DNA from: Dehalococcoidia bacterium
GTDB taxonomy: Bacteria; Chloroflexota; Dehalococcoidia; DSTF01; JACRBR01
Assembly (NCBI GenBank): GCA_041494685.1
Contig: JBGQBE010000026.1
Span: 1-42,137 of the forward strand
Direction of reading: 5' to 3'
Length of the DNA stretch: 42,137 bases
This document shows positions 1 through 15,580 of this stretch, piece by piece. The notes beneath the pieces were generated by a model. That model did no database searches. It was not told the origin of the DNA and was given only the letters and a program-made list of their open reading frames with translations. The stretch's first letter is position 1; the number at the start of each line of letters is the position of its first letter. Position numbers and translations under genes: made by a program.

Positions 1-1
1 G

Positions 2-1474
2 GTCAACGGCATCGGCGCGGCGTCCTACTCCTACGACACCATCGGCAACATGACGGCGAAGACGGAGTCGCTCGTCGGGATGCTGAACCCGACGAACATG
101 ACGCTGACGTATCCGGCGTCCGGCAGCGCCTCCGTGCGCCCCCACGCCGTCACGTCGACGGCCGGCACGCCGGCGCTCACGCTGACGTACGACGCCGCGG
201 GTAACCTCGCCAGCACGTCGGCGTCGAGCTCGACGTATACCTTCGACGCCGAGAACCGGCTGAAGACGCGGACCGTCTCAGGCGGCACGGTCTCCTACAC
301 CTACGACGCGAACGGCACGCTCGTGAAGCGGACGAACGCCGACAACACGTGGACCGTGTACGTCGGCGGGGTGTTCGAGAAGAACAGCGACGGCAACACC
401 GTCAAGTACTACGGCGCCTCGGGCAAGGTCGTGGCGATGCGCAAGACGCCGTCCGGCGGCGCGCCGTCGCTGTACTACCTGCTCGGCGACCACCTGGGCA
501 GCACGTCCGTCATCACCGATGCCAGTGGCGCCGTTGTGGCGAGCGAGAAGTACTGGCCGTACGGTGCCACACGCTCCGGCGCGATCACGCAGACGGACAA
601 GCTCTATACGGGCCAGCAGGCGGAGCCGGGCGACAGCGCGCTCGGGCTCTCCAACTACAAGGCGCGGTTCTACAGCTCGGTCACGGGGAGGTTTGTGAGT
701 GCGGATTCGGTGACGGTCGATGGACTGAACCGCTACGCCTATGTCCGGAACAATCCCGTGAATCACACGGATCCGACCGGACGTTGTTTTAGAGGCCCTG
801 ATGGTACTGAGCTACCGTGCGATCCAGGCGCTGTCAACACGTGGCTGGCATGTGCTCTCGGGGCGTGCGCTAACAGGCCTGACCTGGAACTCATGGCACA
901 GGTCGGCATCGGACAGGCGCTGTTCTGGGCAAACGCCTATGATCTGTCGCGGCGGTACAGTGGCGGGGGTGTCGTATATACGGCAGGACTCTTAGTGACC
1001 ATCGGCAAGTACGCCACGATCAACAACTTCAACCTGATCCCCGCGTCTGGGTTTACCACTCTCGGCGTGATGCTGGGTATGGGGGGCCTGAAATATGGAC
1101 CGTTCGTCAGGGCGTCGCTGAGCGATCTGCTGTTCGGCACGCGCGACGTGTCCCAACTCAGCGCGGGTGAGATCGCCGGAGGAACTTTGTGGTGGGAGGT
1201 GATGGGGTCCACCATGGACATCCTGGGTGGCCTTGGCCATAACCAAGCACGGAACTCCGTCGACGTCATGCAGGAGTTCGACGACAGAACCCTCGACGTC
1301 GCCTCTCAGTTGGATCCAGTCGACATTGCCCATGCCTTCCAATGGTCTGAGGACCAGTGGACATTGCTACACTGGAAGTTCGGCATCCCGATTCCGCCGC
1401 CACCTGAGGATCCTAGCCAGGGCGAGTGTGACGTCCAATGCATTGTAGACTGGATCAACAGCTGGCACGGATGA
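2..1474 (+). CDS. Rhs repeat-associated core protein with C-terminal tip CT1; open at the left window edge (end of the main rhs gene or an orphan module)
   Basis: YD repeats (YTYDANG, YTFDAENRL) and Rhs core motifs (LGDHLGS, YWPYG, YTGQ, YKARFY, RYAYVRNNP). DPTG cleavage motif at 770-781. The frame is open from base 2. Confidence 0.9.
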   Translation, partial: VNGIGAASYSYDTIGNMTAKTESLVGMLNPTNMTLTYPASGSASVRPHAVTSTAGTPALTLTYDAAGNLASTSASSSTYTFDAENRLKTRTVSGGTVSYTYDANGTLVKRTNADNTWTVYVGGVFEKNSDGNTVKYYGASGKVVAMRKTPSGGAPSLYYLLGDHLGSTSVITDASGAVVASEKYWPYGATRSGAITQTDKLYTGQQAEPGDSALGLSNYKARFYSSVTGRFVSADSVTVDGLNRYAYVRNNPVNHTDPTGRCFRGPDGTELPCDPGAVNTWLACALGACANRPDLELMAQVGIGQALFWANAYDLSRRYSGGGVVYTAGLLVTIGKYATINNFNLIPASGFTTLGVMLGMGGLKYGPFVRASLSDLLFGTRDVSQLSAGEIAGGTLWWEVMGSTMDILGGLGHNQARNSVDVMQEFDDRTLDVASQLDPVDIAHAFQWSEDQWTLLHWKFGIPIPPPPEDPSQGECDVQCIVDWINSWHG

Positions 1475-2271
1475 CTTCCAGGGGAATAGCTGCCATGACT
1501 ACACGACCCGCACGTTGCATCTTGTTCGCCTTCGCGGCGCTCACGCTAAGCTTCTTTGCGTGCGGGCAGCCAGCGGATAGCCGGCCGAACATCGGAAGCG
1601 CCTCGCCGTCAGCTCTCGCGGGGGCGTCTCCCATCCACACGCCATCCGCGACCCCGCAAAGCGTCGCGAGTCTCCTCCCCGCATCAGAGACTCCGTTCGC
1701 CGTCAAGTTCAAATGGTCGCGAGGTGTCCCGGGCGGAGGGGCAGCGTTGTTCGAATGGCGCCAGAACAAGGGAGTGCGACGCTGGGATTCGGCGACCAGC
1801 GACAGGCAAGGTGACTTCACGATTCAGCGGGATCTCAGCACTGATCTTCCGCTAGGCGCGGCAACCTCAGTTGGGTGCATCTGGTTTCGAAAACCGGATG
1901 AGACGGATCCACGCGTCAATTGCGACCGAGACTCCGTTGGGGGTACCTCAGACCCGCTCCTCGGGGATCTCGTCCCCGCGATACAACACGGCGTGATCAC
2001 CCGTGAAATTGGCGGTCGGGAGATCGCAGGTCACCAGGCATCCTGTTACGAGTTCGAGGCCCGTTCAAAAGGCGTCATCTGCGTAGACAACGCCGGCACG
2101 CCCCTGTATTTCACGAGCGAGAAATATGGAAGCCAACCCGGCCAAACGATCGAGGCGACAGACGTATCAACAGCTGTGCCGGACTTGGACTTGCCGGCAG
2201 ATCTGCCGTACCAAACCGAGATACGAGATTCTCCAGAAATGTCGGCGATCCATCTTCAATTGCCGTGGTGA
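1471..2271 (+). CDS. Lipoprotein, candidate immunity protein for CT1
   Basis: ATGA overlap with the rhs stop. Basic N-terminus, hydrophobic stretch and lipobox-like FFA-C. Paralogous to 3695..4471. Confidence 0.75.
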   Translation: MTSRGIAAMTTRPARCILFAFAALTLSFFACGQPADSRPNIGSASPSALAGASPIHTPSATPQSVASLLPASETPFAVKFKWSRGVPGGGAALFEWRQNKGVRRWDSATSDRQGDFTIQRDLSTDLPLGAATSVGCIWFRKPDETDPRVNCDRDSVGGTSDPLLGDLVPAIQHGVITREIGGREIAGHQASCYEFEARSKGVICVDNAGTPLYFTSEKYGSQPGQTIEATDVSTAVPDLDLPADLPYQTEIRDSPEMSAIHLQLPW

Positions 2272-2333
2272 CGCAGTCTGGTTCTTCTCGGCGGCCTTGA
2301 CGGCCCGTCGGACTCCAGTCCGGCAGCTCTTCC

Positions 2334-3695
2334 GTGCGCCCGCACGCCGTCACGTCGACGGCCGGCACGCCGGCGCTCGCGCTGACGTACGACGCGGACG
2401 GCAACCTGGCGACGCAGGGCAGCTCGGCGTACACCTACGACGCCGAGAACCGGCTGAAGACGCGGACCGTCTCAGGCGGCACAGTGACGTACACCTACGA
2501 CGCGAACGGCACGATGGTGAAGCGCACGAACGCGGACGGCACGTGGACGGTGTACGTCGGCGGCGTGTACGAGAAGAACAGCGACGGCAGCACGGTCAAG
2601 TACTACGCGGCGCTGGGCAAAGCGGTCGCAATGCGGCGCACGCCCGCCGCGGGAGCGTCGACCCTGTATTACACCCTCAGCGACCACCTCGGCAGCACCT
2701 CGGTGATCACCGACACGAGCGGCGCCGTCGTGGCCAGTCAGAAGTACTGGCCGTACGGCGCGACACGCACCGCCTCTGGCACGCTGCCCACCGACAAGCA
2801 GTACACCGGCCAGCAGGTCGAGCCCGGCGACAGCGCGCTCGGGCTGTACAACTACAAGGCGCGCTTCTACAGCACCACGCTGGGGCGGTTTGTCAGTGCG
2901 GATTCGGTGACGAAGGATGGGCTCAACCGTTATACGTATGTGCGAAACAACCCGGTGCGACATTCCGATCCGTCCGGGCAATGCATCCTCGGGCAGCAAT
3001 GCACAATCGGCGACGTGAGTAGGTTCATACGTTGCGCGTCAGGGGGTGACTGCAAGGTTCCAACAGGTGTGAACGAAGAAGATGTTCGGCGATTGGCGGG
3101 CTGGGCCCTCGGCCAGGACGAGTTCTGGGGCAATGTGTTCCAGTTAAACGCGACGTGCGGATGCGGACAGGTGTTCATTGTGCAGGTCATGGCCACGATC
3201 GGCCGAAACGCACAGCCGGGGACGCTCGACCTCATCTCAGACTTTGGGTACCAGACCTTATCTCATCTTCTTGGTATGGACCGCACGGCTAGCGAATTCC
3301 TCAAGAAGTCTCTCAGCGATCTACTTTTCGGCACATCGGAGGTCAGTACCATGGCCGCCAGCGCGATTGTCGGAGCGAGTCCGTGGTGGGAAGAAATCGG
3401 TACGATGATGCAAATGATCGAGGGTGGCTATACTATCGCGGACTCACCTTGGGAAGACGACGTATTTTGGGCGCTTGTCAACAAGACAATCGAATGGGGG
3501 ACCGCCCTACAAGTCGACGGGGCTGACCTTCAACATCGAGAGTGGTCGCCGTTTCAGTGGGAGATCATCAAGGGCAAGTTAGGCGTCAATCCTCCCGAGG
3601 ATTTCGATCCCTCTGGGTGCGTCACCGACCCCGAATGCATAGGGAAGTGGGCCAGGCTTGGGTCCGAGATTCCCCCGGAGTATCCTCAACCGTGA
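2334..3695 (+). CDS. Orphan Rhs core + C-terminal tip CT2 (5'-truncated)
   Basis: DNA homology to module 1 starts abruptly at about 2319 (matching about 119). No convincing RBS. DPSG at 2967-2978. The tip is paralogous to CT1. Confidence 0.85.
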   Translation: MRPHAVTSTAGTPALALTYDADGNLATQGSSAYTYDAENRLKTRTVSGGTVTYTYDANGTMVKRTNADGTWTVYVGGVYEKNSDGSTVKYYAALGKAVAMRRTPAAGASTLYYTLSDHLGSTSVITDTSGAVVASQKYWPYGATRTASGTLPTDKQYTGQQVEPGDSALGLYNYKARFYSTTLGRFVSADSVTKDGLNRYTYVRNNPVRHSDPSGQCILGQQCTIGDVSRFIRCASGGDCKVPTGVNEEDVRRLAGWALGQDEFWGNVFQLNATCGCGQVFIVQVMATIGRNAQPGTLDLISDFGYQTLSHLLGMDRTASEFLKKSLSDLLFGTSEVSTMAASAIVGASPWWEEIGTMMQMIEGGYTIADSPWEDDVFWALVNKTIEWGTALQVDGADLQHREWSPFQWEIIKGKLGVNPPEDFDPSGCVTDPECIGKWARLGSEIPPEYPQP

Positions 3696-4471
3696 TGGCC
3701 GTGACTCGGTGCGTCAATCGGAATGTCTTGCTTGCCACAGTGCTCGCACTGGCCAGCGTGGTGGCCGCCTGCGGGTCGCCAACAGCCAGCACGAGTACCG
3801 CTACGCCACGCGCGCAAGCGACACCGGCGCTAATGTCGCCACCTCGGACTGGATCCGTCAGCGGTCTGATCGCTTCGCCAAGGGCTACCTTTGATGTCAG
3901 ATTCAGCTGGACGGACGGCGCGCCCTCGGGCGGACCGATCGATTATGAATGGCGGCAGCGGGACGGTATACGGCGACGCGACGTCCGAAACGGCGATTCA
4001 GAAGGCGCGTTCTCGATTGAGCGCGACTTTGCTGACCCGCCCAATGACCACGAGGGCCGCGCGAATCTGAACTGCGAATGGTTACACAAGCAAGGGGACG
4101 CCGTCGCGGGCGTCAGTTGTCGGTCGGGTACTCCAGGTAGCGGCATTTCGGGAAGCATCGAGAACGCTCTCGGCACGGCCATCGATTTCGGGCAACTGAC
4201 ACGGCCACTCGCCGGCCGTGAAATAGCAGGCCGCTCTTCATGGTGCTATGAGTTCAGCGCCCTTTCCACCGGCGAAATCTGCGTCGACGCGTCGAGCATC
4301 CCCCTCTATTTCAGCGGGCAGTTCCGCCCAACCACCAAGAAGGTCACGATCGAGGCGATATCAGTCTCGCTTGACGTATCCGAACTTGACGTCACTCCGG
4401 ACTTCCCGACCGCAGCGAGCTACAAGGGTTTCGCGGACGTTCCGATTTCCGATCTCCATTTGCCCAATTAG
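3695..4471 (+). CDS. Lipoprotein, candidate immunity protein for CT2
   Basis: TGATG overlap with the rhs stop. Lipobox VAA-C. Shares EWRQ..G.RR.D and GREIAG....CYEF...G.ICVD...PLYF with 1471..2271. Confidence 0.75.
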   Translation: MAVTRCVNRNVLLATVLALASVVAACGSPTASTSTATPRAQATPALMSPPRTGSVSGLIASPRATFDVRFSWTDGAPSGGPIDYEWRQRDGIRRRDVRNGDSEGAFSIERDFADPPNDHEGRANLNCEWLHKQGDAVAGVSCRSGTPGSGISGSIENALGTAIDFGQLTRPLAGREIAGRSSWCYEFSALSTGEICVDASSIPLYFSGQFRPTTKKVTIEAISVSLDVSELDVTPDFPTAASYKGFADVPISDLHLPN

Positions 4472-4500
4472 CGGCACCAACGCCCGATTCGAGGAGATCT

Positions 4501-4528
4501 GCCACGGTCCGAATTCTCCGTGGCGTTT
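4501..4528 (+). terminator. Possible weak intrinsic terminator after lipoprotein 2
   Basis: GCCACGG-N10-CCGTGGC followed by GTTT. Confidence 0.3.
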
Positions 4529-4541
4529 GTCGCTCGGCAAT

Positions 4542-6161
4542 CTGGCGCTCGGCAACGGCCTCACCACGCGCTACACGTACGACAGCCGCCAGCGGGTGAC
4601 CGGCATCACGGCCGGCACGGCGCTCGTGCCCGGCTCCACCCAGAACATGGCCCTGACCTACGACGACGCCAGCAACGTGACGGCCGTGACGGACCGGTCG
4701 ACGGGCGAGGTCGACGGCTACACGTACGACGCCCTGGACCGGCTCACGTCGATGACGGTCAACGGCATCGGCGCGGCGTCCTACTCCTACGACACCATCG
4801 GCAACATGACGGCGAAGACGGAGTCGCTCGCCGGCATGCTGAACCCGACGAACATGACGCTGACCTATCCGGCGTCCGGCAGCGCCTCCGTGCGCCCGCA
4901 CGCCGTGACCTCGACCACCGGCAGCCAGGCGCTCACGCTGGCCTACGACGCCAACGGCAACCTGGCAACGCAGGGCAGCTCGACGTACACCTACGACGCC
5001 GAGAACCGGCTGAAGACGCGAACCGTCTCAGGCGGCCACGACACGTACCTCTACGACGCCCACGGCACGCTCGTGAAGCGCGTCAACGCCGACAACACCT
5101 CCACCGTCTACATCGGCGGGATCTACGAGGCGGCCTACGACGCGAGCGGCGTGCTGACGGGCACGACGAAGTACTACCAGGCCTTCGGGCGCAACATCGC
5201 GATGCGCAGCAGCAGCGTCGCCGCCTGCGCCGGCACGCCCTGCTACCTGCTCGCCGACCACCTCGGCAGCACGGTGGGGATGACGGACAGCTCCGGGAAC
5301 GTGCTCTCGACGCAGAAGTACTGGCCATACGGCGCCGTGCGCTCCGGTGGGGGCGCGCAGACGGACAAGCAATTCACCGGCCAGCAGGTTGAGAACGGGG
5401 ATGCGAGCCTCGGCCTCTATGACTACAAAGCCCGATTCTACAGCACGGTGCTCGGGCGATTTGCCAGTGCGGATCCGAGCTCGAAGGACGGCCTCAATCG
5501 ATACAGCTACGCACGCGACAACCCTGTGCGTTATCGAGATCCGACCGGATACGACGCCGCGTCAGACCTGAGGGCTATCTATGCCGGATGGCAAGCGTCG
5601 GGAATGACAGCGGACGAGTACATCAGAGAACTAGTCCGGGCCGGGATGCTCTTGGGGGTCATTCCTAACGGCATAATCACTACGGGTAATGGCGGCTCCG
5701 TTTGGCACGTCTTTGCGCCGAAGACTGGACATCTAACCGACATCACGCCGGAGAATATCCAGACATACGAAGAAGTCGCGGCCGATCCGAACCTGCTCGA
5801 AGGCGTAGACGAGTACGGCAACATGTACTTTGCCAAGATGCGTCCGGATGGCAGCCAGATCTGGGTTCGCGTCTACAATGGCATTATCAAGAGCGCCGGA
5901 GTCAATAGGCCGGGTGAAAGCCGCGTTTGGGATCCGCTCAGGCGAGCGCTAGTTCGGTTGGATCCGCGGTCGCCGGAGGTTCCTGACGAGGACGCGCCAG
6001 GCAACCCCGATGACGAGATTCCCCCACGAGGTCCGGGTGGCGGAACGTGCGCGTGCAACCCCCCGGGACAGGGAGTCCCATACGTACCACCATTCCCGGA
6101 TGTGCCGGCACCGGCGCCTGTACCGGTCGCGCCACCTGTCTCCGTCCCCTTCCCGGCCTAG
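4542..6161 (+). CDS. Orphan Rhs core + C-terminal toxin CT3 (5'-truncated)
   Basis: Rhs-like sequence begins about 4542 (LGNGLTTRYTYD). 4757-4914 is nearly identical to 1-158. DPTG at 5538-5549. The tip has HVF...GH...D.YGN......DGSQIWVRVYNGIIKSAGVN, then a Pro-rich tail. Confidence 0.85.
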   Translation: MALGNGLTTRYTYDSRQRVTGITAGTALVPGSTQNMALTYDDASNVTAVTDRSTGEVDGYTYDALDRLTSMTVNGIGAASYSYDTIGNMTAKTESLAGMLNPTNMTLTYPASGSASVRPHAVTSTTGSQALTLAYDANGNLATQGSSTYTYDAENRLKTRTVSGGHDTYLYDAHGTLVKRVNADNTSTVYIGGIYEAAYDASGVLTGTTKYYQAFGRNIAMRSSSVAACAGTPCYLLADHLGSTVGMTDSSGNVLSTQKYWPYGAVRSGGGAQTDKQFTGQQVENGDASLGLYDYKARFYSTVLGRFASADPSSKDGLNRYSYARDNPVRYRDPTGYDAASDLRAIYAGWQASGMTADEYIRELVRAGMLLGVIPNGIITTGNGGSVWHVFAPKTGHLTDITPENIQTYEEVAADPNLLEGVDEYGNMYFAKMRPDGSQIWVRVYNGIIKSAGVNRPGESRVWDPLRRALVRLDPRSPEVPDEDAPGNPDDEIPPRGPGGGTCACNPPGQGVPYVPPFPDVPAPAPVPVAPPVSVPFPA

Positions 6162-6242
6162 CCTTGAGAAGGTGTCGCGGCCACACTGGGTCGTGCGCAT
6201 GAGCCTAGGTGGGCCACTTGGCAGACCTCTCGGAGGTGCTTG

Positions 6243-6497
6243 ATGTCGCGTGAAGAACGTCTCCTGACAATTGACGAGGCCTACGCCGCCCTGCTGCGCT
6301 TTCTCAAGCTCTACTATGCGACGCTCGGGAACGCTACCATCGCTGACGTCTTGGGGGATGGCTCGCTTGCTGCCCCCCGCAACACGGTCGATCCCGGCGT
6401 CTGGGACACTTGGCTGGAGGCGTTGAACGAAATTACCGGTGGGGCCTTCAACGAGATGGCCGAAGAATATCATGCCAGATGGCAAACGGGTGGATAG
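6243..6497 (+). CDS. Small cytoplasmic candidate immunity protein for CT3
   Basis: GGAGGT RBS at 6232-6237. 84 aa, helical (LTIDEAYAALLRFLKLYY...DPGVWDTWLEAL), no signal peptide, directly downstream of the tip. Confidence 0.75.
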   Translation: MSREERLLTIDEAYAALLRFLKLYYATLGNATIADVLGDGSLAAPRNTVDPGVWDTWLEALNEITGGAFNEMAEEYHARWQTGG

Positions 6498-6644
6498 ATC
6501 CGTAGCGCTGACCTCGGGAGTGACACGAGCTGCGCATTGCGACGGACGACGTCTTGGGGGTGGTCTTGGCTACGGAAGCGCGACTCCTTCGCGGTGAGTT
6601 TGCGGATGGGTGGCCAGACTGACAGGCCTGGGCGATCTGAAGGG

Positions 6645-6998
6645 ATGCGCGCCGTGAAGAAGCGCCAACAGCGTCGGGCGGGCAGGTGGCCGATCGGTCC
6701 ATTGTATGCTCCTATCTGGCGCCGCCGCATCGTCACGATCGTCATTGGTAGTTTAGTTATGCCCGCTGGGGTTCTGTATGTCGGTGTCACCTCGCCAAAT
6801 GCCGGGTTCACCTCTGCAGGTATTTTGTCCGCCGCCGCGTTCGTCTATGTGGTTCAAATGGGCGTGGGCTACGGCTTTGCGCTACTCCTCATGCCACGCG
6901 ACCTTAAGGAAGAATGGCGCCCCGCCAATTCTTGCATGCTGAAGAACAGAGGCGGCAGCAGAAGCAGTAGCGTCCTCGTAGTGGCGTACGGCACATAG
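6645..6998 (+). CDS. Small putative membrane protein, possibly orphan immunity or a gene remnant
   Basis: Basic N-terminus then two hydrophobic segments. Sits between Rhs modules. Start uncertain. Confidence 0.35.
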   Translation: MRAVKKRQQRRAGRWPIGPLYAPIWRRRIVTIVIGSLVMPAGVLYVGVTSPNAGFTSAGILSAAAFVYVVQMGVGYGFALLLMPRDLKEEWRPANSCMLKNRGGSRSSSVLVVAYGT

Positions 6999-7030
6999 GC
7001 CAGGTGGCGTGTGCGACGGCGAGCCCGTGG

Positions 7031-8359
7031 CTGACGCTGAACTACGACACCGCGGGCAACCTTGCGTCCGGCACCTCCGGCACCACGAGCACGTACACCT
7101 ACGACGCCGAGAACCGGCTCAAGACGCGGGCGGTGAGCGGCGGCTCGGTCTCGTACACGTACGACGCGAGCGGCACGATGGTGAGGCGCCTCAACGCTGA
7201 CGGATCGTGGACCGTGTACATCGGCGGCGTCTACGAGAAGAACAGCGACGGCAGCACCGTCAAGTACTACGGCGCCTCGGGCAAAGCGGTGGCCATGCGG
7301 CGCACGCCCGCCACGGGAGCGCCGACGCTGTACTACACCCTCTCCGACCACCTCGGCAGCGTGTCGGTCGTCACGGACACCACCGGCGCCGTCGTGGCGA
7401 GCCAGAAGTACTGGCCCTACGGCGCCGTGCGCTTCGGCGGCGTCTCGCAGACCGACAAGCTCTACACCGGGCAGCAGATCGAGCCCGGCGATAGCGCGCT
7501 CGGGCTGTACAACTACAAGGCGCGCTTCTACAGCACGGTGACGGGGCGGTTTGTGAGCCCCGATCCAACGAACGCAAGCGGCAGTTGGATGGCCCTCAAT
7601 CGATTCGTGTACGCAAACGACAACCCGATGAAATTCATCGACCCAAGCGGGTATGACCCTACCCAGCAAGATCTGAGTAACTGCGCCGCCAACATTGTCG
7701 CGTGCTTGGAGCTATCGTACGGTGGCGACTCGCACAATGGGATCATCTTCGTGATGGGACTATTCGAGTCGAGGACTTCTCCCGGCGATCTCGATCACTA
7801 TGCTGGTTATGCGGAAACCTTCTTGGAGCGGTATGTTCCGGGCTGTAGTGGTCGAGGAGGCGAATGCTGGGAAGCGGCCAAGCTCCTTGAAACGACAGAA
7901 GGCAGCGACGCAGCGTACAAGGTGTTTGGGTTGAAGTTCATCGCGTCCGATCCGGGTGGGCACGGCTGGGAAGGGATTGTTGGCTCGATTCCGGGCGTGA
8001 AGCATGTCCCGTTTCTCGGTGATCGCCTCCCTGATCGAGGATTGGACGCCCTTGGCAAGGCTGTTCGCGACACGTCCAAGTTCATCGTCGGCGTCATCGG
8101 CGTAAGCTTGGGAGCCGGTACCGTAGGGAAGTACTTCACCGAGCATCCCAACGTCAACATCCCCTTCGTCATGGATTCGGGTGCCGACTGGGATCCGGGA
8201 GTCATTGAAGCGAATGCAGCCCATTACAACGGTCTGCTGCCAAATCTCGTCGACTCTACTAGCTTCTGGTCCTGCGGTTGTCCGCTTCATGGTGCCAATG
8301 ATGGGCTCGCATCCGTCTTCTATGATGAGTTCGATGAGTATAGCCAGCTATACAGGTAA
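7031..8359 (+). CDS. Orphan Rhs core + C-terminal tip CT4 (alpha/beta-hydrolase-like)
   Basis: Core homology begins about 7031 (LTLNYDTAGNL). DPSG at 7640-7651. The tip has IIFVMGL and a G-x-S-x-G motif (IVGVIGVSLGAG; GVSLG at 8099-8113) plus a late His (PLHG). Confidence 0.85.
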   Translation: MTLNYDTAGNLASGTSGTTSTYTYDAENRLKTRAVSGGSVSYTYDASGTMVRRLNADGSWTVYIGGVYEKNSDGSTVKYYGASGKAVAMRRTPATGAPTLYYTLSDHLGSVSVVTDTTGAVVASQKYWPYGAVRFGGVSQTDKLYTGQQIEPGDSALGLYNYKARFYSTVTGRFVSPDPTNASGSWMALNRFVYANDNPMKFIDPSGYDPTQQDLSNCAANIVACLELSYGGDSHNGIIFVMGLFESRTSPGDLDHYAGYAETFLERYVPGCSGRGGECWEAAKLLETTEGSDAAYKVFGLKFIASDPGGHGWEGIVGSIPGVKHVPFLGDRLPDRGLDALGKAVRDTSKFIVGVIGVSLGAGTVGKYFTEHPNVNIPFVMDSGADWDPGVIEANAAHYNGLLPNLVDSTSFWSCGCPLHGANDGLASVFYDEFDEYSQLYR

Positions 8360-8927: not shown

Positions 8928-9063
8928 ATCGGGGTCGCTGGCTGTTCCGGTACGATTGGAACGCAATGGGTCAGCGTCACGTGCAACAGCAGCGGCGTTG
9001 CCGTCGAGCTGCGTTCCAAGCACGATGCAATCATGGTGACGCCTTCGAGGAGGGGGCGTCGCC

Positions 9064-9994
9064 ATGCAAGCCACGATCACCACGTTCGACAACACCGCCG
9101 AGGGCTGGGAACGCAGCCTCTACGCGTTCCTCGCCGAGAAGGAGCGCCGCTCCGGCAGCCGGCGCACCGTCGAGGGCTACAGCCGCATGCTGCAGCACTT
9201 CTTCGCCAGCGTCGGCAAGCCGCCCGATCGCGTCACCAGCCCGGAGGTCTTCGCCTGGGGGTACGGCGTCGGCCTCTCCGGCAAGCAGCCGTCGTCCGTC
9301 ACCATCGGCGCACGGCTCGCCTGCCTGAGCAGCTTCTACCGCTTCCTGATCCGCATGGACGTCGTCTCGTCCAACCCCTGCGACGCGCTCGAACGCCCGC
9401 GCGTCCAGGTCGCACCGCCCCGCGGCCTCAGCGCCGACGACATCCGCAAGCTGCTCGCCGTCATCCCGGAGACGCCCGTGGGTCTGCGGGACCGCGCGAT
9501 CATTCTCACGCTGACGCTCACCGGCCGGCGCCGCGCCGAGGTACTGAACATGACGGCAGGCGACCTCTCGCAGGAGGACGACCGCGTCTGGTACCGCTGC
9601 CGGGGTAAGGGCAACAAGCAAGGGAAGCGGGAGCTGCCACACCCCGCGTACGAGGCGCTCACGGCGGCCCTGTCGGCCTTCGGGCGGGACATCGCGGCCA
9701 TGGCCCCCGGATGCGTCGTTGTGGCCGTCCAGCGCGCGCGACAGGGGCGTCACGTCGGGGACCTTCTACGGGAACCTGCGGCGCTACCTCAAGGCAGCGA
9801 ACCTGCCGCTCGCCGGCGTGCACATCTTCCGCCACTCGGCCGCCAAGCTGCGGCGCGACGCCGGCGAGAGCATCGAGAACGTATCTCGCTTCCTCGACCA
9901 CTCGTCGCTGCAGGTGACGTCGATCTACCTCAGGCGGTTGGAGGGTGAGGCTGACGGGAGCTGGGGGAAGGTGGCCGCGGCGATCGGCGTTTGA
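9064..9994 (+). pseudogene. Tyrosine recombinase/integrase with a frameshift (one extra base) at the C5 run, 9704-9708
   Basis: Strong RBS (GAGGAGGG). The first frame has LRDRAII..TGRRRAE and RGKG. HIFRH, LDHSS and TSIY are in the frame of 9719..9994. Deleting one C gives continuous MAPDASLWPSS. Confidence 0.85.
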
Positions 9995-10961
9995 GCTTGC
10001 GGATCTCTTCGCCGTCGCGGTAACGCCTGATCGCGTTGAGGCGGCTCACGCGAAAGCTCTCGACGTTCTTGAATCTCCAGAGTGGATGCACGTCGTTCCA
10101 CAGCTCATACAGGTCATCGAGCGTTAGTTTCTCGACGCGTCCCCAAGTCCAGTAGCTCGCATCGAAACGGGCCAGCCGTGCGCCTCTCGATGTAAAGAGG
10201 AAACCCCGAATAGCTCGGCGATATGCTGCGCGAACGTCTTCCGGGGTCGCGACCTCCGGATTGATGTGCATTTCCACGTGATCGGGCCCGCCGAAGTTCT
10301 TCCTTGTGACCTGGACGCTGAATGCCGACTGCTTCGGCGCAACACCGGCGAGAATCCAGCGCGCTGCATCCTCCATCGAACAGCCAGAGTGCTCCACAAG
10401 ACGCTTGCTTGCTGACTCCAACTCTTCAAACACGGACTTCCGCACAATCGCTTGGAACTCGTCGTCGGTCCAACGGAGGTTCGAGAATCGGCTGCGAAGT
10501 CGCAGTCTTCCGAGAACCTCAGCCAACTCAGCCGATGGAACAGGTGCAGACCGTGAAATGAACTGCGCGAGAGGCAATTGCTCCTTCCTCCACCACTCTA
10601 CGAATTCGTCGGCCAATCCCGCGTTCCCGGGAAAGGGGACGTTGTCGAATCCGAGCGACCACCGGGCGTTCTGTGTATTGAGCCACTCTCGCGCTAGGGC
10701 GGCATCGATCCAGGCCCGCCCGCGCTGAATGAGCTCGTCGGGGAGATCGAATCCGAGGCCTACCAGCGGCGCATCTCGCTCGATGGGTCCGCGCCACGAG
10801 CCAAAGTAGGCTCGACTACAGTCGGCGAGCTCGTTTTTCGTTTGGGGAATGTGAGCGAGTGAACGAGTGTAGCGCTCGAACTCCGCCAACAGCTTCGATA
10901 GGGCATCTTCTTGTAACATCACCGGCCCTAATCTTACAGACCGCACGGCGTACGGTTCCAT
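9930..10961 (-). CDS. Hypothetical element-associated protein; start uncertain (10919, 10961 or 11159)
   Basis: Long ORF with protein-like composition in lower-GC DNA. Convergent with, and overlapping, the recombinase 3' end. Confidence 0.6.
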   Translation of the reverse strand: MEPYAVRSVRLGPVMLQEDALSKLLAEFERYTRSLAHIPQTKNELADCSRAYFGSWRGPIERDAPLVGLGFDLPDELIQRGRAWIDAALAREWLNTQNARWSLGFDNVPFPGNAGLADEFVEWWRKEQLPLAQFISRSAPVPSAELAEVLGRLRLRSRFSNLRWTDDEFQAIVRKSVFEELESASKRLVEHSGCSMEDAARWILAGVAPKQSAFSVQVTRKNFGGPDHVEMHINPEVATPEDVRAAYRRAIRGFLFTSRGARLARFDASYWTWGRVEKLTLDDLYELWNDVHPLWRFKNVESFRVSRLNAIRRYRDGEEIRKLKRRSPRPPSPSSRQPHPPTA

Positions 10962-11254
10962 CGTGGCTGCAAAGGAACCGATCCCCGCCGGCTGCGGCGT
11001 GTTCCACCGAGAGCCGTCGGCGAGCAGATTGGGTGGGAGTCTGCTGATGTATCCCCACGTGCGTATACAGACGCCCGTTGACGAGCGGAGGCCGGATGGG
11101 CGACAATCAATGAAATACGACGCATCCGCAAGGCGACTGCCGGCGGTGCCGTCGTACATAGATCCACCGTCCGGACATTGAGGCGGCCACTCCCGAGGGG
11201 GCAGTGGCCGCCTCTTTCGATTTCTTGGCTTGAGCAGGAGCGGCGTCGGCGACG

Positions 11255-11893
11255 ATGACGGCGAACAAGGGAGCAGTAGCGGCGGGGAGAGCCACCATTT
11301 CGGTGGACCGTCCCCTGGTCCCTTTCTTTCAGGCGCTCGCGGCCCTGCTGGTGGTTGATGAGCAAGGAGCTGTAACGCTGGCACGACAAATGCGCGCTCC
11401 GAGCGACGCGGTCTTCAGGCTCCGAGGGGGGGTCTGGGATCTCCGCCTCGCTGATTCCGAATGTTTGCTCCCGGATCGGAAAGGTCTCCGCTACATCCAC
11501 CAGTTACTGCGGTCGCCAGGACAAGCGGTCGCCGCACTTCGACTCGCCGCCGGTGAGGAGGCGTTCGAGCGACTGCGGGCACAACGACGACAGCCGCTTC
11601 TGGATCATCAAGGGCGACGCGAACTCAACGCGGCTATCTCGGCCGCTTCTGATAGTGGGCCGTCTCAAGTCGGCCAGTACGTCAGGTCCGCTACCGGCCG
11701 CGGAGGCCGTACCAGGACATTCGCCACGGAAGCGGAGAGGGCTCGAGGCGCCGTCCTCAAGGCGATTACCAGCGCTATCGCCGCGATCGATCGGCACTGC
11801 CCGGAGATCGCCCATCACCTACGCGCTTCGATAGACACCGGCAACTTCTGCGTCTATCGGCCCATCGTGTTTGTCGAGTGGGAACTTCGATGA
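11255..11893 (+). CDS. Putative DNA-binding regulator, winged-helix-like; resembles the C-terminal domain of actinobacterial ATPase regulators
   Basis: VFRLRGGVW...KGLRYIHQLLRSPGQ...ERARGAVLKAI..AI..I...HL..SIDTG.FCVY pattern. Start uncertain (11255 or 11390). Confidence 0.65.
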   Translation: MTANKGAVAAGRATISVDRPLVPFFQALAALLVVDEQGAVTLARQMRAPSDAVFRLRGGVWDLRLADSECLLPDRKGLRYIHQLLRSPGQAVAALRLAAGEEAFERLRAQRRQPLLDHQGRRELNAAISAASDSGPSQVGQYVRSATGRGGRTRTFATEAERARGAVLKAITSAIAAIDRHCPEIAHHLRASIDTGNFCVYRPIVFVEWELR

Positions 11894-11915
11894 AGAAGAG
11901 AGTTTTGCGCGGTGT

Positions 11916-11953
11916 GTGACGCGAGACGTCACGAATGTGACGCGGAACGTCAC
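11916..11953. promoter_or_regulatory. Tandem palindromic operator, 2 x GTGACG-N5-CGTCAC, 21-bp period
   Basis: GTGACG-CGAGA-CGTCAC (11916-11932) and GTGACG-CGGAA-CGTCAC (11937-11953), between the regulator and the small ORF/serine recombinase. Confidence 0.65.
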
Positions 11954-11986
11954 GCCGTAAAGGTTGAAGTCTGCGAAGGAATGGGC

Positions 11987-12271
11987 GTGACCGACCTCGT
12001 AGCTAACGGCCCCACCGGGCGTCAGCCACCCTCGACCAGTGCCGAAGTCACGCCCGGCCTCGTCGAGGGTTTTCGCGTGAGGGCCGAACCAACTTGCTAC
12101 GACGGCCGCGGAGAGCGTCTATGTGCACGTGACGAGCCGGACGGCGCCAGCGAGCGCGCGTTCCGGCCGGAGCAGGAGGCGCTCTTCGTGCTACTCGCGT
12201 CCGTCTCTCGCCGGATCGCCGGCCGAATCAGTGCGCGCCGACCGCTGATGCCGCTGCGGGTGGTCAAGTGA
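11987..12271 (+). CDS. Small hypothetical protein coupled to the serine recombinase
   Basis: AAGGA 6 nt upstream of GTG 11987. Its stop overlaps the recombinase start (GTGA, 12268-12271). Amphipathic C-terminal helix (EQEALFVLLASVSRRIAGRI). Confidence 0.45.
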   Translation: MTDLVANGPTGRQPPSTSAEVTPGLVEGFRVRAEPTCYDGRGERLCARDEPDGASERAFRPEQEALFVLLASVSRRIAGRISARRPLMPLRVVK

Positions 12272-13791
12272 AGCGATGCAAGCCGTATCGCATCATCCGG
12301 CGCGTGGCCATCTATTTGCGCGTCTCGAGCGACGAGCAACTCCTCGGACACTCGATGGACTCCCAGACCAAAGCGTTGCTTGCTTGGGCGAAGATGGAGG
12401 GTTGGGAGGTCGTCGAGATCTACGCCGATGCAGGTGTCAGTGGAACGAGCGTCGAACGGCGGCCCGAGTTTCGTCGGATGATGGCCGACGCGCAGGCCGG
12501 GAAGTTCGACGCGATTCTTGTGCTCAAGATCGACCGCTTTGCCCGCTCCCTCCGCGACTCGACGATCTACGGCGAACTCCTGCGGGATTGCGGCGTGCGC
12601 CTGTTGTCGAGGACAGAGCCGAACGCCGGCGACGACACGCCAGCCGCATTCCTCATGAACGGCCAGGCCGACCTCTACGCAGCCTACTATTCGATCCAGC
12701 TCTCGGACAACGTGGCGCGCGGAAAGGCGACGCGCGCGGCGAAGGGACTGCCGCTCGGCGACCTGCCGTTCGGGTACGTGAGCGCCGGACCTCAGGAGCC
12801 GCCGACCATCGTCTCAGACGAAGCGGAGCAGATTCGGCGCTGTTTCCGGGGGTACGCCGCGGGCAATCGCTCGATGGCCGAGCTGGCCCAATCCCTGAAC
12901 GCGGCGGGGTTCCGCCCACGGTCGAAGCGCGGGAGGGCGGTCTTCTCGAAGGCCACGCTCAGCGGAATGTTGTCGAACCCGACGTACGTCGGCGACGTGA
13001 CGCGCCACGGGCAATTCATCACAAGCGGTCACTACGAGCCGATCATCGGTCGCGAGCTATGGGACGCCGTCCAACGAGCCCGACGCGAACGCGCCAGCAA
13101 GCCGCAGATGCACGCCCGACGATCGAAGCGGGCATACCTGCTGTCAGGAGTAGGGTGCTGCGTGACCTGCGGCTCTCCGTTGTGGGCGAACACCATCAAT
13201 GGAGGCAAGCACAACTACTATCGCTGCGCATCGCGCCAGCGCGGTGACGAATGCGCGGATGGCCGAGTTGGCCACCGAGCCGATCCGGTTGAAGCCCACG
13301 TTCACGAGGTCTTCTCGGAGTTGGCCATGCCGCCCGCGTGGCGCGAGCGCGTCGCCGAGCTCGCCCAACATGACGACAAGGGACGCGACGTAGAGGCGGA
13401 GCGCCGCCGATTGACCGGGAAGATCGGTCGCATCAGGCAGGGCCTGGTCGATGGCGTACTCGAGAACGACGAGGCCAAGGAGGCGATGAACGAAGCCGAA
13501 GCGGCCCTCGCGGTGCTTGCGTCAGCAGGGTGTGAACCGGCACGGGCGGGAGAGGTGCTCACGGACGTGCGCGAGCTGTGGCCTCACATGAGCGACGCAG
13601 AGCGGCGCGATCTAGTGCAACTGGTGCTGGCGAAAGTCGTGGTTGATCTGCGGACAGGCGAGATGCGGGCGATGACGCCGAAGCCCGCCTTTTCGACGTT
13701 GTTCGCGGTCTTGGGTGAGTACGAGGGCGGGCTGATTCGGGTTTGTGACTGGCGACCCCGAAGGGATTCGAACCCTCGATCTCCACCGTGA
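12268..13791 (+). CDS. Large serine recombinase (resolvase, recombinase and Zn-ribbon domains)
   Basis: YLRVSS catalytic Ser, DAGVSGT..ERRPEF, KIDRFARS, PFGY, LSNPTYVG, CVTCG...YYRC...C zinc ribbon, coiled-coil C-terminus. Confidence 0.95.
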   Translation: MKRCKPYRIIRRVAIYLRVSSDEQLLGHSMDSQTKALLAWAKMEGWEVVEIYADAGVSGTSVERRPEFRRMMADAQAGKFDAILVLKIDRFARSLRDSTIYGELLRDCGVRLLSRTEPNAGDDTPAAFLMNGQADLYAAYYSIQLSDNVARGKATRAAKGLPLGDLPFGYVSAGPQEPPTIVSDEAEQIRRCFRGYAAGNRSMAELAQSLNAAGFRPRSKRGRAVFSKATLSGMLSNPTYVGDVTRHGQFITSGHYEPIIGRELWDAVQRARRERASKPQMHARRSKRAYLLSGVGCCVTCGSPLWANTINGGKHNYYRCASRQRGDECADGRVGHRADPVEAHVHEVFSELAMPPAWRERVAELAQHDDKGRDVEAERRRLTGKIGRIRQGLVDGVLENDEAKEAMNEAEAALAVLASAGCEPARAGEVLTDVRELWPHMSDAERRDLVQLVLAKVVVDLRTGEMRAMTPKPAFSTLFAVLGEYEGGLIRVCDWRPRRDSNPRSPP

Positions 13792-13826
13792 CAGGGTGGC
13801 ATGTTAGACCGCTACACCACGGGGCC
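13750..13826 (-). tRNA. tRNA-Asp(GTC)
   Basis: Reverse complement is GGCCCCG TGGTGTAGCGGTCTAACATG CCACC CTGTCAC GGTGG AGATC GAGGG TTCGAAT CCCTT CGGGGTC G CCA: full cloverleaf, GTC anticodon, encoded CCA. Confidence 0.97.
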
Positions 13827-13881
13827 GCGCTTGCATGTCAACGCCCGAAGCACGCCGGACGGCGAGGTCTTCGGGCGGTTC

Positions 13882-13910
13882 ATTCTATTGACCGGGCCCG
13901 AGGGTGTCAA
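13882..13910 (-). promoter_or_regulatory. Sigma70-type promoter for tRNA-Asp
   Basis: TTGACA-N17-TAGAAT on the minus strand. A leader hairpin GCCCGAAG...CTTCGGGC follows. Confidence 0.75.
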
Positions 13911-15580
13911 TCCGGTCGCCCGGCCGGCGTCGCGTCCAGCCACTGCCCGTAGTTGTACTGCGCCATCGCCCCCGTCACCCCCGGCTGCCGTCCTTGCACG
14001 TACCGCCAGGCCGCCTGGTACGACGTGTTCGTGAACAGCGTCAGCAGTGGCCGCGCCTCCAGCATCTTCCGCTGTGCCTCCAGCAGGGTGTCGCGCCGCA
14101 CGGCGCGGTCCGCCTCGCCCCATGAGCGCTCCAGCAGCAGGTCGATCGTCGCATCCCCGAACCCGAACGGGCTCTCCGTGCCGTCGAGTCCGCGCGAGTG
14201 GTACAGCCGCGTCGGCAGGTCCGGCGTCTCGTACGGCTCGTGGCTGATCAGCGTCGCCGCGAAGTGGCCGCGGCGGAACCCCAGGAACCACGTCAATTGG
14301 TCGATCGCCTCCAACTCGATCGTCAGGCCGATCTCCCGCAACTGGTCGCGCACGACCGTCGCCACGTCCAGCAGCTGCGGCAGATTCGCGACCTGCAGCA
14401 GGATTGGCGCCGTAGCCGCGCCCGCCGCCTCGATCAACGCGCGCGCGTCCGCCCGCCGCTCGTCGAGCGGACGTGCGCTCTCGTGCGCGGCAGTCACCTC
14501 CGCCGGCGGCAGCGACCAGTAGCCGCCCGCCATGTGCGGGTTCACGGGCCCCAGCTCTTCGCCGTCGTTGAAGGCGATGTCGCGGATCATCGCGGCCCGG
14601 TCCAGGCCGATGTCGATGGCGCGACGCACCCGCTCGTCCGCGAACGGCGGCTGATCCACGCGGAGGCCGATCGAGAGCCACGCGAGCCCGCGCTCCGCAT
14701 CGGTCAGCAGGTCCTTCGATGCGTCCGCCAGCGCCCGCGCCTCGAAGCGGTCGTGCGCGGCCGCCGCATCGATCGCGTGCGACCGCAGCGCCGCTTCCTT
14801 CGCGTCGTCGTCGGCGAAGAGCACCCACTCCATCGCATCGAGGTAGGGCAGCGGCGCGCCGTAATAGCTATCGTTCCGCACGATGCGCGCCCCGTCCTCA
14901 CGCGACGCATGCTCCACGCGGAAGGGGCCGCTGCCGGCGCCGCCCGCGCTCAGGTCTGTCGCCAGCTGCTCCTTCGGGATGATCGCGCCGCCCGAGATAC
15001 CGCCCAGCTCCGCGAGCGACCACACGTACGGGATGCGCGTCGTTACCCGCACGGTCGCCGCGTCGGGCGTCTCCACGCGGTCGAGCATGGTGGTGTGCCA
15101 CGTCTTGGTGGCTACAAGCGGGTTGTCGCGGTAGCGCGCGATCGAGAGCGCGACGTCCTCCGACGTGACGGCGCGTCCGTTCACCGGTGCGATGTCCGGG
15201 AAACGGACGTCGGTCCGCAAGTGGAAGATGTACGTCGTGGCGTCCGGCTGCTCGATCTCGCGCACGTGGTCGCGCACGAGCGTGTCGCCGTCCGGGTCGA
15301 CGTGGTGGAGATAGCCGTAGACACGGGGGAAGATCGCCAACCCGGTGCCGGTCTCGATCTGCGGGTCGAGGCCGTAGGCGATCGGCAGCGTCGTGCCTGT
15401 GCGCAGCGTGCCACCGCGCCTGGGGGTGCGGGTCGGCGTCGCGTCGGCCGTGCGCTTCGAGCCGCCGCACGCGGCGGCCAGCGCCGCGGCGGATGCGCTG
15501 ACCGCGCCGACAGCGAGCAGCCGCCGGCGGGAGACGCGCACGGCGGCGAGGCGAGGCGTCGAGCGCCGGTCAGCGGCCAT
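13907..15580 (-). CDS. ABC transporter substrate-binding protein, family 5 (Opp/Dpp-like), Tat lipoprotein
   Basis: SRRRLL twin-arginine signal and AAA-C lipobox. RGGTLR, GSGPF, PYLD and PPFADERVRRAI motifs. Confidence 0.9.
   Translation of the reverse strand: MAADRRSTPRLAAVRVSRRRLLAVGAVSASAAALAAACGGSKRTADATPTRTPRRGGTLRTGTTLPIAYGLDPQIETGTGLAIFPRVYGYLHHVDPDGDTLVRDHVREIEQPDATTYIFHLRTDVRFPDIAPVNGRAVTSEDVALSIARYRDNPLVATKTWHTTMLDRVETPDAATVRVTTRIPYVWSLAELGGISGGAIIPKEQLATDLSAGGAGSGPFRVEHASREDGARIVRNDSYYGAPLPYLDAMEWVLFADDDAKEAALRSHAIDAAAAHDRFEARALADASKDLLTDAERGLAWLSIGLRVDQPPFADERVRRAIDIGLDRAAMIRDIAFNDGEELGPVNPHMAGGYWSLPPAEVTAAHESARPLDERRADARALIEAAGAATAPILLQVANLPQLLDVATVVRDQLREIGLTIELEAIDQLTWFLGFRRGHFAATLISHEPYETPDLPTRLYHSRGLDGTESPFGFGDATIDLLLERSWGEADRAVRRDTLLEAQRKMLEARPLLTLFTNTSYQAAWRYVQGRQPGVTGAMAQYNYGQWLDATPAGRPD

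Follow-up and report, generated by a model that had tools for sequence, protein, structure and literature searches.

Contig JBGQBE010000026.1 of a Dehalococcoidia bacterium (assembly GCA_041494685.1) carries two tandem palindromes between the gene of a stand-alone 212-amino-acid (aa) regulator and a small open reading frame (ORF) that is followed by a large serine recombinase gene. The whole contig of 42,137 nucleotides (nt) was analyzed and is called the window here, and all coordinates are window positions. Judging from sequence comparison, we proposed that these palindromes are probably the operator of the regulator, situated at an activator-dependent promoter of the recombinase operon. The proposal draws on the sites themselves, the resemblance of the regulator to a known protein fold, the co-occurrence and common geometry of such sites across the protein family, and covariation between protein and DNA. 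Beyond the window, what the analysis chiefly offers is an operator and a specificity code, both open to test, for an output domain of STAND ATPases that is large and unannotated.

The palindrome pair and the stand-alone regulator

The features on which the argument depends are as follows.

11195..11217, plus strand: terminator-like hairpin with a T-rich tail, upstream of the regulator gene (pattern scan only)
11255..11893, plus strand: stand-alone 212-aa regulator lacking ATPase and sensor parts; OmpR/PhoB-like winged helix that carries a helical insert (from the ORF, the model, and homologs)
11729..11797, plus strand: codons of residues 159-181, the predicted recognition helix with family motif ERARxxVTxxIR (from the model helix and the mutual-information ranking)
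11916..11932, no strand: distal 17-bp palindrome GTGACG-N5-CGTCAC, GTGACGCGAGACGTCAC, half-sites 1 and 2
11937..11953, no strand: proximal 17-bp palindrome, GTGACGCGGAACGTCAC (pattern match)
11937..11956, plus strand: proximal palindrome plus GCC, the 20-mer GTGACGCGGAACGTCACGCC (family-motif match, 16.5 bits)
11963..11969, plus strand: second element GTTGAAG, 6 nt past GCC (8.7 bits)
11981..12271, plus strand: small ORF of 96 aa whose stop overlaps the recombinase start; protein-coding status uncertain
11984..11991, minus strand: inverted extra copy of GTCACGCC, overlapping the small-ORF start
12047..12054, plus strand: direct extra copy of GTCACGCC, within codons 1-32 of the small ORF, which are conserved
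12268..13791, plus strand: large serine recombinase of 507 aa, its last 14 codons inside tRNA-Asp

The pair of GTGACG-N5-CGTCAC palindromes reported in the preliminary description was confirmed in the sequence: both have perfect 6-bp arms, their starts lie 21 bp apart, and the distal one begins 22 nt past the stop codon of the regulator ORF at 11255-11893. The distance to the small ORF had been given as about 35 bp, which was an approximation, the proximal palindrome being 27 nt from ATG 11981 and 33 nt from the in-frame GTG 11987. The reported lack of a canonical -35 element agreed with a sigma-70 consensus scan that found no promoter-like site in 11894-11980, and the reported coupling of the small ORF to the recombinase with the overlap of TGA 12269-12271 and GTG 12268-12270. 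The sole sigma-70-like match within 10800-12500 was at 11078-11107, and the hairpin at 11195-11217 is, as read from its sequence, predicted to insulate the regulator from upstream transcription.

The position of the palindromes and their non-random occurrence were confirmed. With at most one mismatch, the pattern occurs three times in the 42-kb window, the third time at 20597, and shuffled versions of the window gave a mean of 0.41 matches, with none of 100 shuffles reaching three. The whole 3.29-Mb genome holds six perfect copies, including the two at the locus, and none of the reversed control pattern. The 8-mer GTCACGCC is found four times in the window, three of them inside the 106 bp from 11949 to 12054. 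In addition, contig X3 from another metagenome carries 11883-12081 with no differences. The RNA fold of the spacer was unremarkable (z -1.70; 9 of 200 shuffles folded equally well) and has no U-tract, and an Rfam scan matched only the tRNA and nothing in the spacer.

The regulator belongs to a large protein family that is without a name in Pfam or NCBIfam. No match was found at E≤0.1 in Pfam, including Trans_reg_C (PF00486), or at E≤0.01 in NCBIfam and PHROGs; a sequence-profile search of the PDB gave no relative, a protein-atlas search returned unnamed clusters only, and phage records gave no tblastn match. Five distant matches were present in plasmid records, with convergent downstream genes in both of the two that were inspected, and a metagenome scan found no relative with the single protein and only distant homologs when based on an alignment. 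The exhaustive search of representatives, clustered at 50% identity, retrieved 6,900 or more clusters at E≤0.001; 999 of them reached ≤1e-10 and two ≤1e-30. Among the best 150 homologs, 52 were longer than 600 aa and 46 were no longer than 300 aa; the motif TGxxCxY was present in 124, and in 118 it lay within 20 residues of the C-terminus. The six long members scanned (813-1304 aa) all contained AAA_16, some with TPR and one with an N-terminal Guanylate_cyc domain, and their C-terminal region matched no Pfam family at E≤0.01, including Trans_reg_C and GerE. These results bear out the earlier suggestion of a link to large ATPase regulators, and they indicate, on sequence grounds, that the domain is usually the C-terminal output of AAA_16/TPR STAND ATPases. 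RefSeq labels two Streptomyces members "AAA family ATPase" and "hypothetical protein."

In the window protein itself, a Pfam scan found neither AAA_16 nor TPR; the six short members scanned (202-218 aa) matched no family, and BTAD was not found in the window protein or in 12 homologs. A search for proteins of similar length recovered only four others, at 87%, 75%, 31%, and 30% identity. The existence of stand-alone relatives (P0002, P0003, P0006, and P0007; 203-212 aa, 40-87% identity) shows that the short form is no fragment but a conserved type. The genome of the window gave a single match to the domain, that is, no second copy, so competition with a full-length paralog is unlikely.

An AlphaFold2 model of the 212-aa protein, built from 44 sequences, reached a predicted local distance difference test (pLDDT) score of 83.2 and a predicted template modeling (pTM) score of 0.66. 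It consists of three strands (51-73), helices 76-86 and 94-111, a lower-confidence helical pair (118-147), a long helix (159-181), a helix at 183-192, and a terminal hairpin (198-210). The features of the OmpR-type fold, namely an N-terminal beta-sheet, a three-helix core with recognition helix, and a C-terminal hairpin wing, are thus all present in the model. In a structure search of 48,161 chains, independent of Foldseek, each of the 27 top rows was a DNA-binding domain of the OmpR/PhoB/ToxR type (Z 5.0-7.1), in keeping with the winged helix and helical insert recognized in the preliminary description. The best match was CssR (Z 7.1, root-mean-square deviation 2.8, 81 residues aligned), followed by VicR (7.0) and GlnR (6.9); AfsR (8hvr_J, Z 4.4) and EmbR (Z 4.2) ranked lower, and the matches span model residues 50-210. 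The tool itself cautions that a Z below 8 is no proof. Because the match list is uniform and the full domain is covered, it is reasonable to regard the modeled protein as an OmpR/PhoB-like winged helix with a helical insert.

Recurrence of the sites after homologous genes

The preliminary description had proposed searching for the motif downstream of regulator homologs, and we compared family loci in several sets. Set (a) came from the phylum of the window (15 of 401 genomes with a match, and no others when the search was rerun with a profile) and set (b) from metagenome contigs (19 loci). Set (c) was a sample of Actinomycetota, the phylum of Phytohabitans flavus, in which 65 of 301 genomes matched at E≤1e-20; it comprised 30 loci and 74 further regions, two rows short of the C-terminal end of the domain being excluded. 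Set (d) was one actinomycete subfamily of proteins of about 1011 aa (80 loci, L044-L123). Three G401 rows (L144, L146, and L149) were counted under a handle-search set of eight loci and not under set (c). A profile placed the domain end and stop codon in 163 places, or 144 after removal of duplicates; eight places were excluded, seven because the domain was not C-terminal (more than 20 residues follow) and one because its flank was shorter than 120 nt. Pooled counts include loci of the unpublished genomes G272, G173, G493, G453, G579, G644, and G631.

By eye, palindromes ending in TCACGCC were seen soon after the regulator stop in sets (a) and (b). Within 120 nt past the stop in set (c), TCACGCC occurred on the coding strand at 18 of 102 loci and on the other strand at one (Fisher p 3.6e-5). 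Expectation-maximization on set (c) alone yielded the motif GT-N10-C-T-n-(A/G)-C-G-C-C, present in about 65% of the sequences, and the resulting matrix was applied at a threshold of 10 bits within 150 nt past the stop. In its training set (c), matrix matches were found at 45 of 102 loci on the coding strand versus 6 on the other, with none at 200-350 nt downstream and none in shuffles. More importantly, both independent sets showed the same strand preference (set (a), 5/13 vs. 0/13; set (b), 5/11 vs. 1/11), which together amounts to 10/24 versus 1/24 (Fisher p 0.004; binomial p 5e-9 against the window background rate). The handle-search set gave no match on either strand (0/8 and 0/8). A related site pattern thus recurs past dozens of homologous genes. 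The window 20-mer at 11937-11956 scored 16.5 bits, the highest of 24 matches in the whole window on both strands.

The geometry of the sites is also shared. At 24 of the 56 site-positive loci, where about 0.4 were expected, the proximal hexamer recurs in direct orientation (5 or more of 6 bases) 20 or 21 bp upstream, and at 20 of the 56 (0.1 expected) it recurs inverted exactly 11 bp upstream. The matrix does not contain the -20/-21 position, and this signal is therefore independent of it. The window carries both upstream copies and a fourth half-site at -32, so that its palindromes are, from sequence comparison, best described as a four-half-site version of the family operator. A second element, G-(G/T)-T-G-A-n-G, follows CGCC after 5 or 6 nt at 34 of 56 loci and is the same whatever the half-site class. 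The site starts at a median of 21.5 nt past the regulator stop, and the start codon of downstream genes confirmed by Pfam lies mostly about 15-48 nt past CGCC. The second element was also considered as a -35 hexamer, and this was rejected, the start codon following only 8-17 nt later in loci such as L008, L011, and L037.

To the two properties of position and geometry a third can be added, covariation with the protein. The half-site class was defined by the three bases before CGCC (TCA 23, GAA 10, TGG 7, TCG 6, and TTA 3 loci) and compared with 229 alignment columns. The residues most strongly associated with class were 165 (z 7.8), 169 (7.5), and 95 (6.2), followed by 170 (5.2), 182 (4.6), and 166 (4.5); four of these top six (165, 166, 169, and 170) fall within six residues of helix 159-181, in the motif ERARxxVTxxIR. 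In particular, TGG and TCG sites pair with ERARKAVT(A/E/W)RIRD, and GAA sites with ERAR(V/L)NVTR(A/T)I. Common ancestry raises covariation scores; alone, it would not focus them in one helix. Taken together, recurrence, half-site geometry, and helix covariation support the idea of the preliminary description that the domain may recognize such sites, which would lie just past its own gene.

We then asked whether the site belongs to the regulator or to the target gene. Downstream ORFs were predicted at 54 loci, of which 45 were scanned after exclusion of that of the window, one duplicate, and seven short ones. They encoded methyltransferases (8/45, seven with an Rv2258c-like HTH_65), FAD_binding_3 proteins (4/45), protein kinases (3/45), short-chain dehydrogenases/reductases (2/45), DUF1326 proteins (2/45), cyclase domains (2/45), APH-like proteins (2/45), and members of single families (7/45), and 15 of the 45 matched no family. 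The downstream genes are of many unrelated kinds, which points to a link of the site with the regulator and not with the target. Sites were associated with co-directional downstream genes: the orientation was "+" at 41, "-" at 9, and undetermined at 6 loci with a site, versus 43, 31, and 6 loci without one.

Two side observations concern these neighbors. The Rv2258c-like methyltransferase (HTH_65 plus an S-adenosylmethionine methyltransferase domain) is the commonest gene right after the operator (7/45; L007, L156, L163, L169, L183, L211, and L215), and L176, which lacks HTH_65, would make eight. In the L044-L123 subfamily, a short conserved convergent gene often ends right after the regulator gene, and TCACTTGCGGTTGTA recurs on the plus strand.

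No operator has been described for this domain as far as the sources covered go, which agrees with the statement in the preliminary description: the domain has no relative in Pfam, NCBIfam, or the PDB, and searches of the open full-text literature returned no paper on the domain or its operator.

A putative activator-dependent promoter and its alternatives

From these properties of the sites, we infer both binding of the regulator to them and the steps that would follow from it. The family operator would sit right after the stop codon of the regulator's own gene, with half-sites about one helical turn apart, and its proximal half-site would end in (A/G)CGCC, 5-6 nt ahead of the fixed G(G/T)TGA element. 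Several protein copies would then line one face of the helix where a -35 element would otherwise lie, and would recruit RNA polymerase to a weak core promoter. The transcript so produced would carry the serine recombinase preceded by the small ORF (or leader), and the supply of recombinase in the tRNA-Asp island would track how much of this sensor-less regulator is present, with a possible effect on excision. We favor activation of such a transcript, the palindrome region being the nearest plausible transcription start for the recombinase. By its layout, which resembles that of SARP promoters, GTTGAAG may be read as part of the core promoter and is most likely -10-like.

At SARP promoters, the direct repeats stand at distances of 11 or 22 bp, with 8 bp between the 3' repeat and the -10 element, and the -35 element is poor (PMC10936776). 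The present system resembles the SARP regulators (AfsR and ActII-ORF4 class) in several respects: an OmpR-like winged helix (AfsR Z 4.4, EmbR 4.2), large members in which the winged helix is joined to a STAND NTPase and TPR, operator repeats one or two helical turns apart (here a 21-bp period in the predicted operator), and a short, constant distance between the last repeat and the core promoter (here 5-6 nt to the constant element, a putative -10). It differs from them in that the domain is C-terminal and not N-terminal, BTAD was not found, a helical insert of 40-60 residues lies inside the winged helix, the half-sites alternate in orientation to form dyads whereas SARP repeats are only direct, and the operator lies directly past the regulator's own stop codon. 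Similarly, the OmpR/PhoB response regulators are alike in fold (CssR, VicR, GlnR, BaeR, CpxR, KdpE, OmpR, and PhoP at Z 5.6-7.1) and in half-site spacing (about 10-11 bp; here 11 and 20-21 bp, with many sites being dyads); however, the present domain has no Trans_reg_C sequence match (E 0.1) and no receiver domain, contains the helical insert, and is attached to ATPases or stands alone. MalT/LAL STAND proteins and cyclase-ATPase-LuxR proteins share the optional cyclase, AAA_16, TPR, and a C-terminal DNA-binding domain, but their output is a LuxR/GerE helix-turn-helix, whereas here it is a winged helix and GerE was not found. Unlike the STAND (AAA_16 plus TPR) regulators, the window protein has no NTPase module or repeat sensor.

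Several observations weigh against an operator that drives the recombinase. In set (d), the matrix matched 2 of 80 loci on the forward strand and 3 of 80 on the reverse strand, and none was seen by eye either; over the sampled family, more than half of the members lack the downstream site. The 45/102 count was drawn from the training set of the matrix, and related loci are not independent, so that counts and covariation are inflated by an unquantified degree. Without the loci of unpublished genomes, the matrix count was 40/93 versus 5/93 and the TCACGCC count 16/93 versus 1/93, with a further count of 5/8 versus 0/8. The fold match is moderate (highest Z 7.1, Trans_reg_C unmatched), and Foldseek against the PDB returned nothing at E≤0.001, its best rows being KdpE, CosR, and NsrR at E 0.3-0.5. 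The -10 consensus of Actinomycetota and of the phylum of the window is TAnnnT, which the second element does not resemble, and this makes the promoter assignment uncertain. Finally, a recombinase search over 261 loci found only the window's own copies and that of L124, and at no other family locus examined does a recombinase lie past the site.

The same protein and sites could instead form a repressor circuit, in which the protein, without ATPase and TPR, would occupy the operator and the extra copies and keep the recombinase silent while the element is integrated. Mobile elements commonly keep their recombinases off, and, downstream of the putative core promoter, GTCACGCC recurs at 11984-11991, across the start codon, and at 12047-12054, in a stretch that is near-invariant in five related sequences, unlike the remainder of the small ORF. 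We nevertheless judged repression unlikely: the proximal site stands at a fixed 5-6 nt from the constant element in a region with no -35 element, which is the activator-dependent layout of SARP targets, and DNA-binding domains of the OmpR family can usually activate on their own.

The conserved stretch deserves a closer description, as the small ORF had been suggested to be a directionality factor. This suggestion found neither support nor refutation: no Pfam, NCBIfam, or PHROG family matched the small ORF, the nearest atlas cluster scored only 0.76, and its model is mostly disordered (pLDDT 58.9, one helix). Homologs exist at 92% (P0155) and 85% identity. P0155 and the regulator P0002 (87%) each lie on a single 2530-nt contig, and the regulator P0159 and the small-ORF variant P0157 each on a 1806-nt contig, where the identity of the contig is deduced from its size alone in both cases; this suggests that the regulator/small-ORF pair is conserved. 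In five sequences, 28 of the first 32 columns are identical, and the rest of the small ORF diverges. Since this 32-codon block holds both extra GTCACGCC copies, what is conserved may be regulatory DNA or a leader and not protein. Moreover, P0157 and P0158 switch to unrelated sequence right after ...LVEGF, which looks like a mosaic junction where a regulator-operator-leader module may have been joined to different cargo, and the N-terminal extension of P0158 reads through a stretch similar to the operator spacer, a hint that the operator may be conserved among the nearest relatives.

It is improbable that the palindromes serve as binding sites for a host factor or for the serine recombinase, or that they act in RNA as tandem hairpins (a terminator or attenuator). 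Each palindrome can fold into a 6-bp hairpin, and the pair lies at the 3' end of a gene with the recombinase as the next large gene; however, the strand-specific motif also follows homologs that have no recombinase nearby, the half-site type covaries with the regulator helix, the spacer has the unremarkable fold (z -1.70) described above with no U-tract and no Rfam match, and the candidate attachment (att) core lies 1.8 kb away at 13750-13771. Still less probable, in our view, is that the winged-helix protein is an architectural or directionality factor, comparable to the excisionases of tyrosine recombinases, and not a transcription factor. Its gene does lie within the recombination module; however, the sites are away from the att core, family members are STAND ATPase outputs beside metabolic genes, and serine-integrase directionality factors are known to act through protein contacts. 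Oligomeric winged-helix directionality factors have been reported (PMC11963761), which counts in favor of such a role. That the palindromes arose by chance, or are a remnant without present function, is the least credible explanation of all: the G+C-rich genome has four other isolated perfect copies, yet no shuffle in 100 gave three matches, the 21-bp tandem layout, GCC, second element, and position all fit the family pattern, and the sequence is identical in contig X3.

If the operator assignment is true, thousands of large ATPase regulators in Actinomycetota, in the phylum of the window, and elsewhere would gain a predicted DNA-binding domain, target gene (the next one downstream), and site. 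The family proteins are currently annotated without a DNA-binding function. Rv2258c-like methyltransferases, flavin monooxygenases, and Ser/Thr kinases are frequent among the predicted targets. The covariation of helix residues and half-sites would then serve as a directly testable specificity code. We put forward a broader proposal, tentatively and as one that may well fail: the large STAND ATPase family and its stand-alone derivatives may share an unrecognized winged-helix output with a readable protein-DNA code, and a mobile element may have taken up the sensor-less DNA-binding part and its operator as a portable promoter module for its recombinase. Under this proposal, residues 165-170 might set the half-site type (TCA, GAA, TGG, or TCG before CGCC), and the operator might lie directly past the regulator stop, in place of the -35 element of the next gene. 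For the window itself, an operator used by an activator would place the recombinase operon under a regulator that lost its sensor, and would raise the question of what, if anything, times recombination.

The recombinase, the island, and neighboring genes

All three domains of a large serine recombinase (catalytic, Recombinase, and zinc ribbon) are present in the 507-aa protein: Resolvase (PF00239, 9.8e-30), Recombinase (PF07508, 2.9e-17), and Zn_ribbon_recom (PF13408, 1.4e-06). It also matches the phrog_95 integrase (E 1.3e-102), NCBIfam CcrB and XisF scored below the cut-off, and GTG 12268 is the only in-frame start ahead of the catalytic domain. Two further features mark its surroundings.

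13750..13826, minus strand: tRNA-Asp(GTC), the integration target and right border of the lower-G+C island (tRNA and G+C scans)
13750..13771, no strand: 22-bp direct repeat at the tRNA-Asp 3' end, candidate att core, with an exact second copy at G000:C9:70945-70966

At the second copy, no tRNA was found, and G+C falls on the island side. In the window, G+C amounts to 58-67% between the contig start and the tRNA, and most bins past the tRNA have 68-73%. Because of the 22-bp repeat and the G+C shift, we proposed that the locus forms the right end of an integrated island and that the opposite end lies on another contig. Contigs of four other sediment metagenomes covering 9000-15500, which were short, low-depth pieces identical to the window, contained no island-crossing contig and no excision junction, a result that bears on excision in neither direction.

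The module resembles those of large serine integrases in its Resolvase, Recombinase, and Zn ribbon domains, in its phrog_95 match, and in the small, translationally coupled upstream gene. It differs in that the small ORF is not DUF2924 and has no family match, and in that tyrosine integrases more typically show a 22-bp repeat of this kind, at the end of a tRNA. Either the serine recombinase or the tyrosine integrase of the island may have made the repeat. The recombinase ORF crosses the repeat, and its last residues would change upon excision. A tyrosine integrase is split over the overlapping frames 9064-9948 and 9719-9994 (294 and 91 aa), both with Phage_integrase; one base at 9702-9706 is missing in the contigs of other metagenomes that cover this stretch, so the window copy is either frameshifted relative to its relatives or affected by an assembly error.

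The wiring of the domain to the recombinase seen in the window had no second example among the 261 loci. L124, from IMG/VR, is the sole viral contig with a family member, a protein of 370 aa, and because it carries one, mobile elements do use the domain. Like the window, L124 has a small gene coupled upstream of a large serine recombinase, there encoding DUF2924. Over 1318-6082, the contig holds DUF2924, the coupled recombinase, the divergent gene of the 370-aa family member, palindromes, and a ParB-N/DNA methylase gene. Its tandem GCCAC/GTGGC palindromes end in GGCGCC and scored 6.6 bits, below the 10-bit line.

Upstream of the regulator, positions 1-8359 comprise four diverged repeats of 2.1-2.6 kb (61-91% identity) with large ORFs, and the contig begins inside this array. 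The ORF at 7004-8359 reads like the C-terminal region of an RHS/YD-repeat protein with a variable tip, which would suggest an array of orphan toxin-tip cassettes. Closer to the regulator, 9930-10922 on the minus strand is an ORF of about 330 aa without a Pfam or PHROG match, and 10963-11181 on the plus strand is a 72-aa ORF that ends just before the hairpin at 11195-11217, downstream of the promoter match at 11078-11107.

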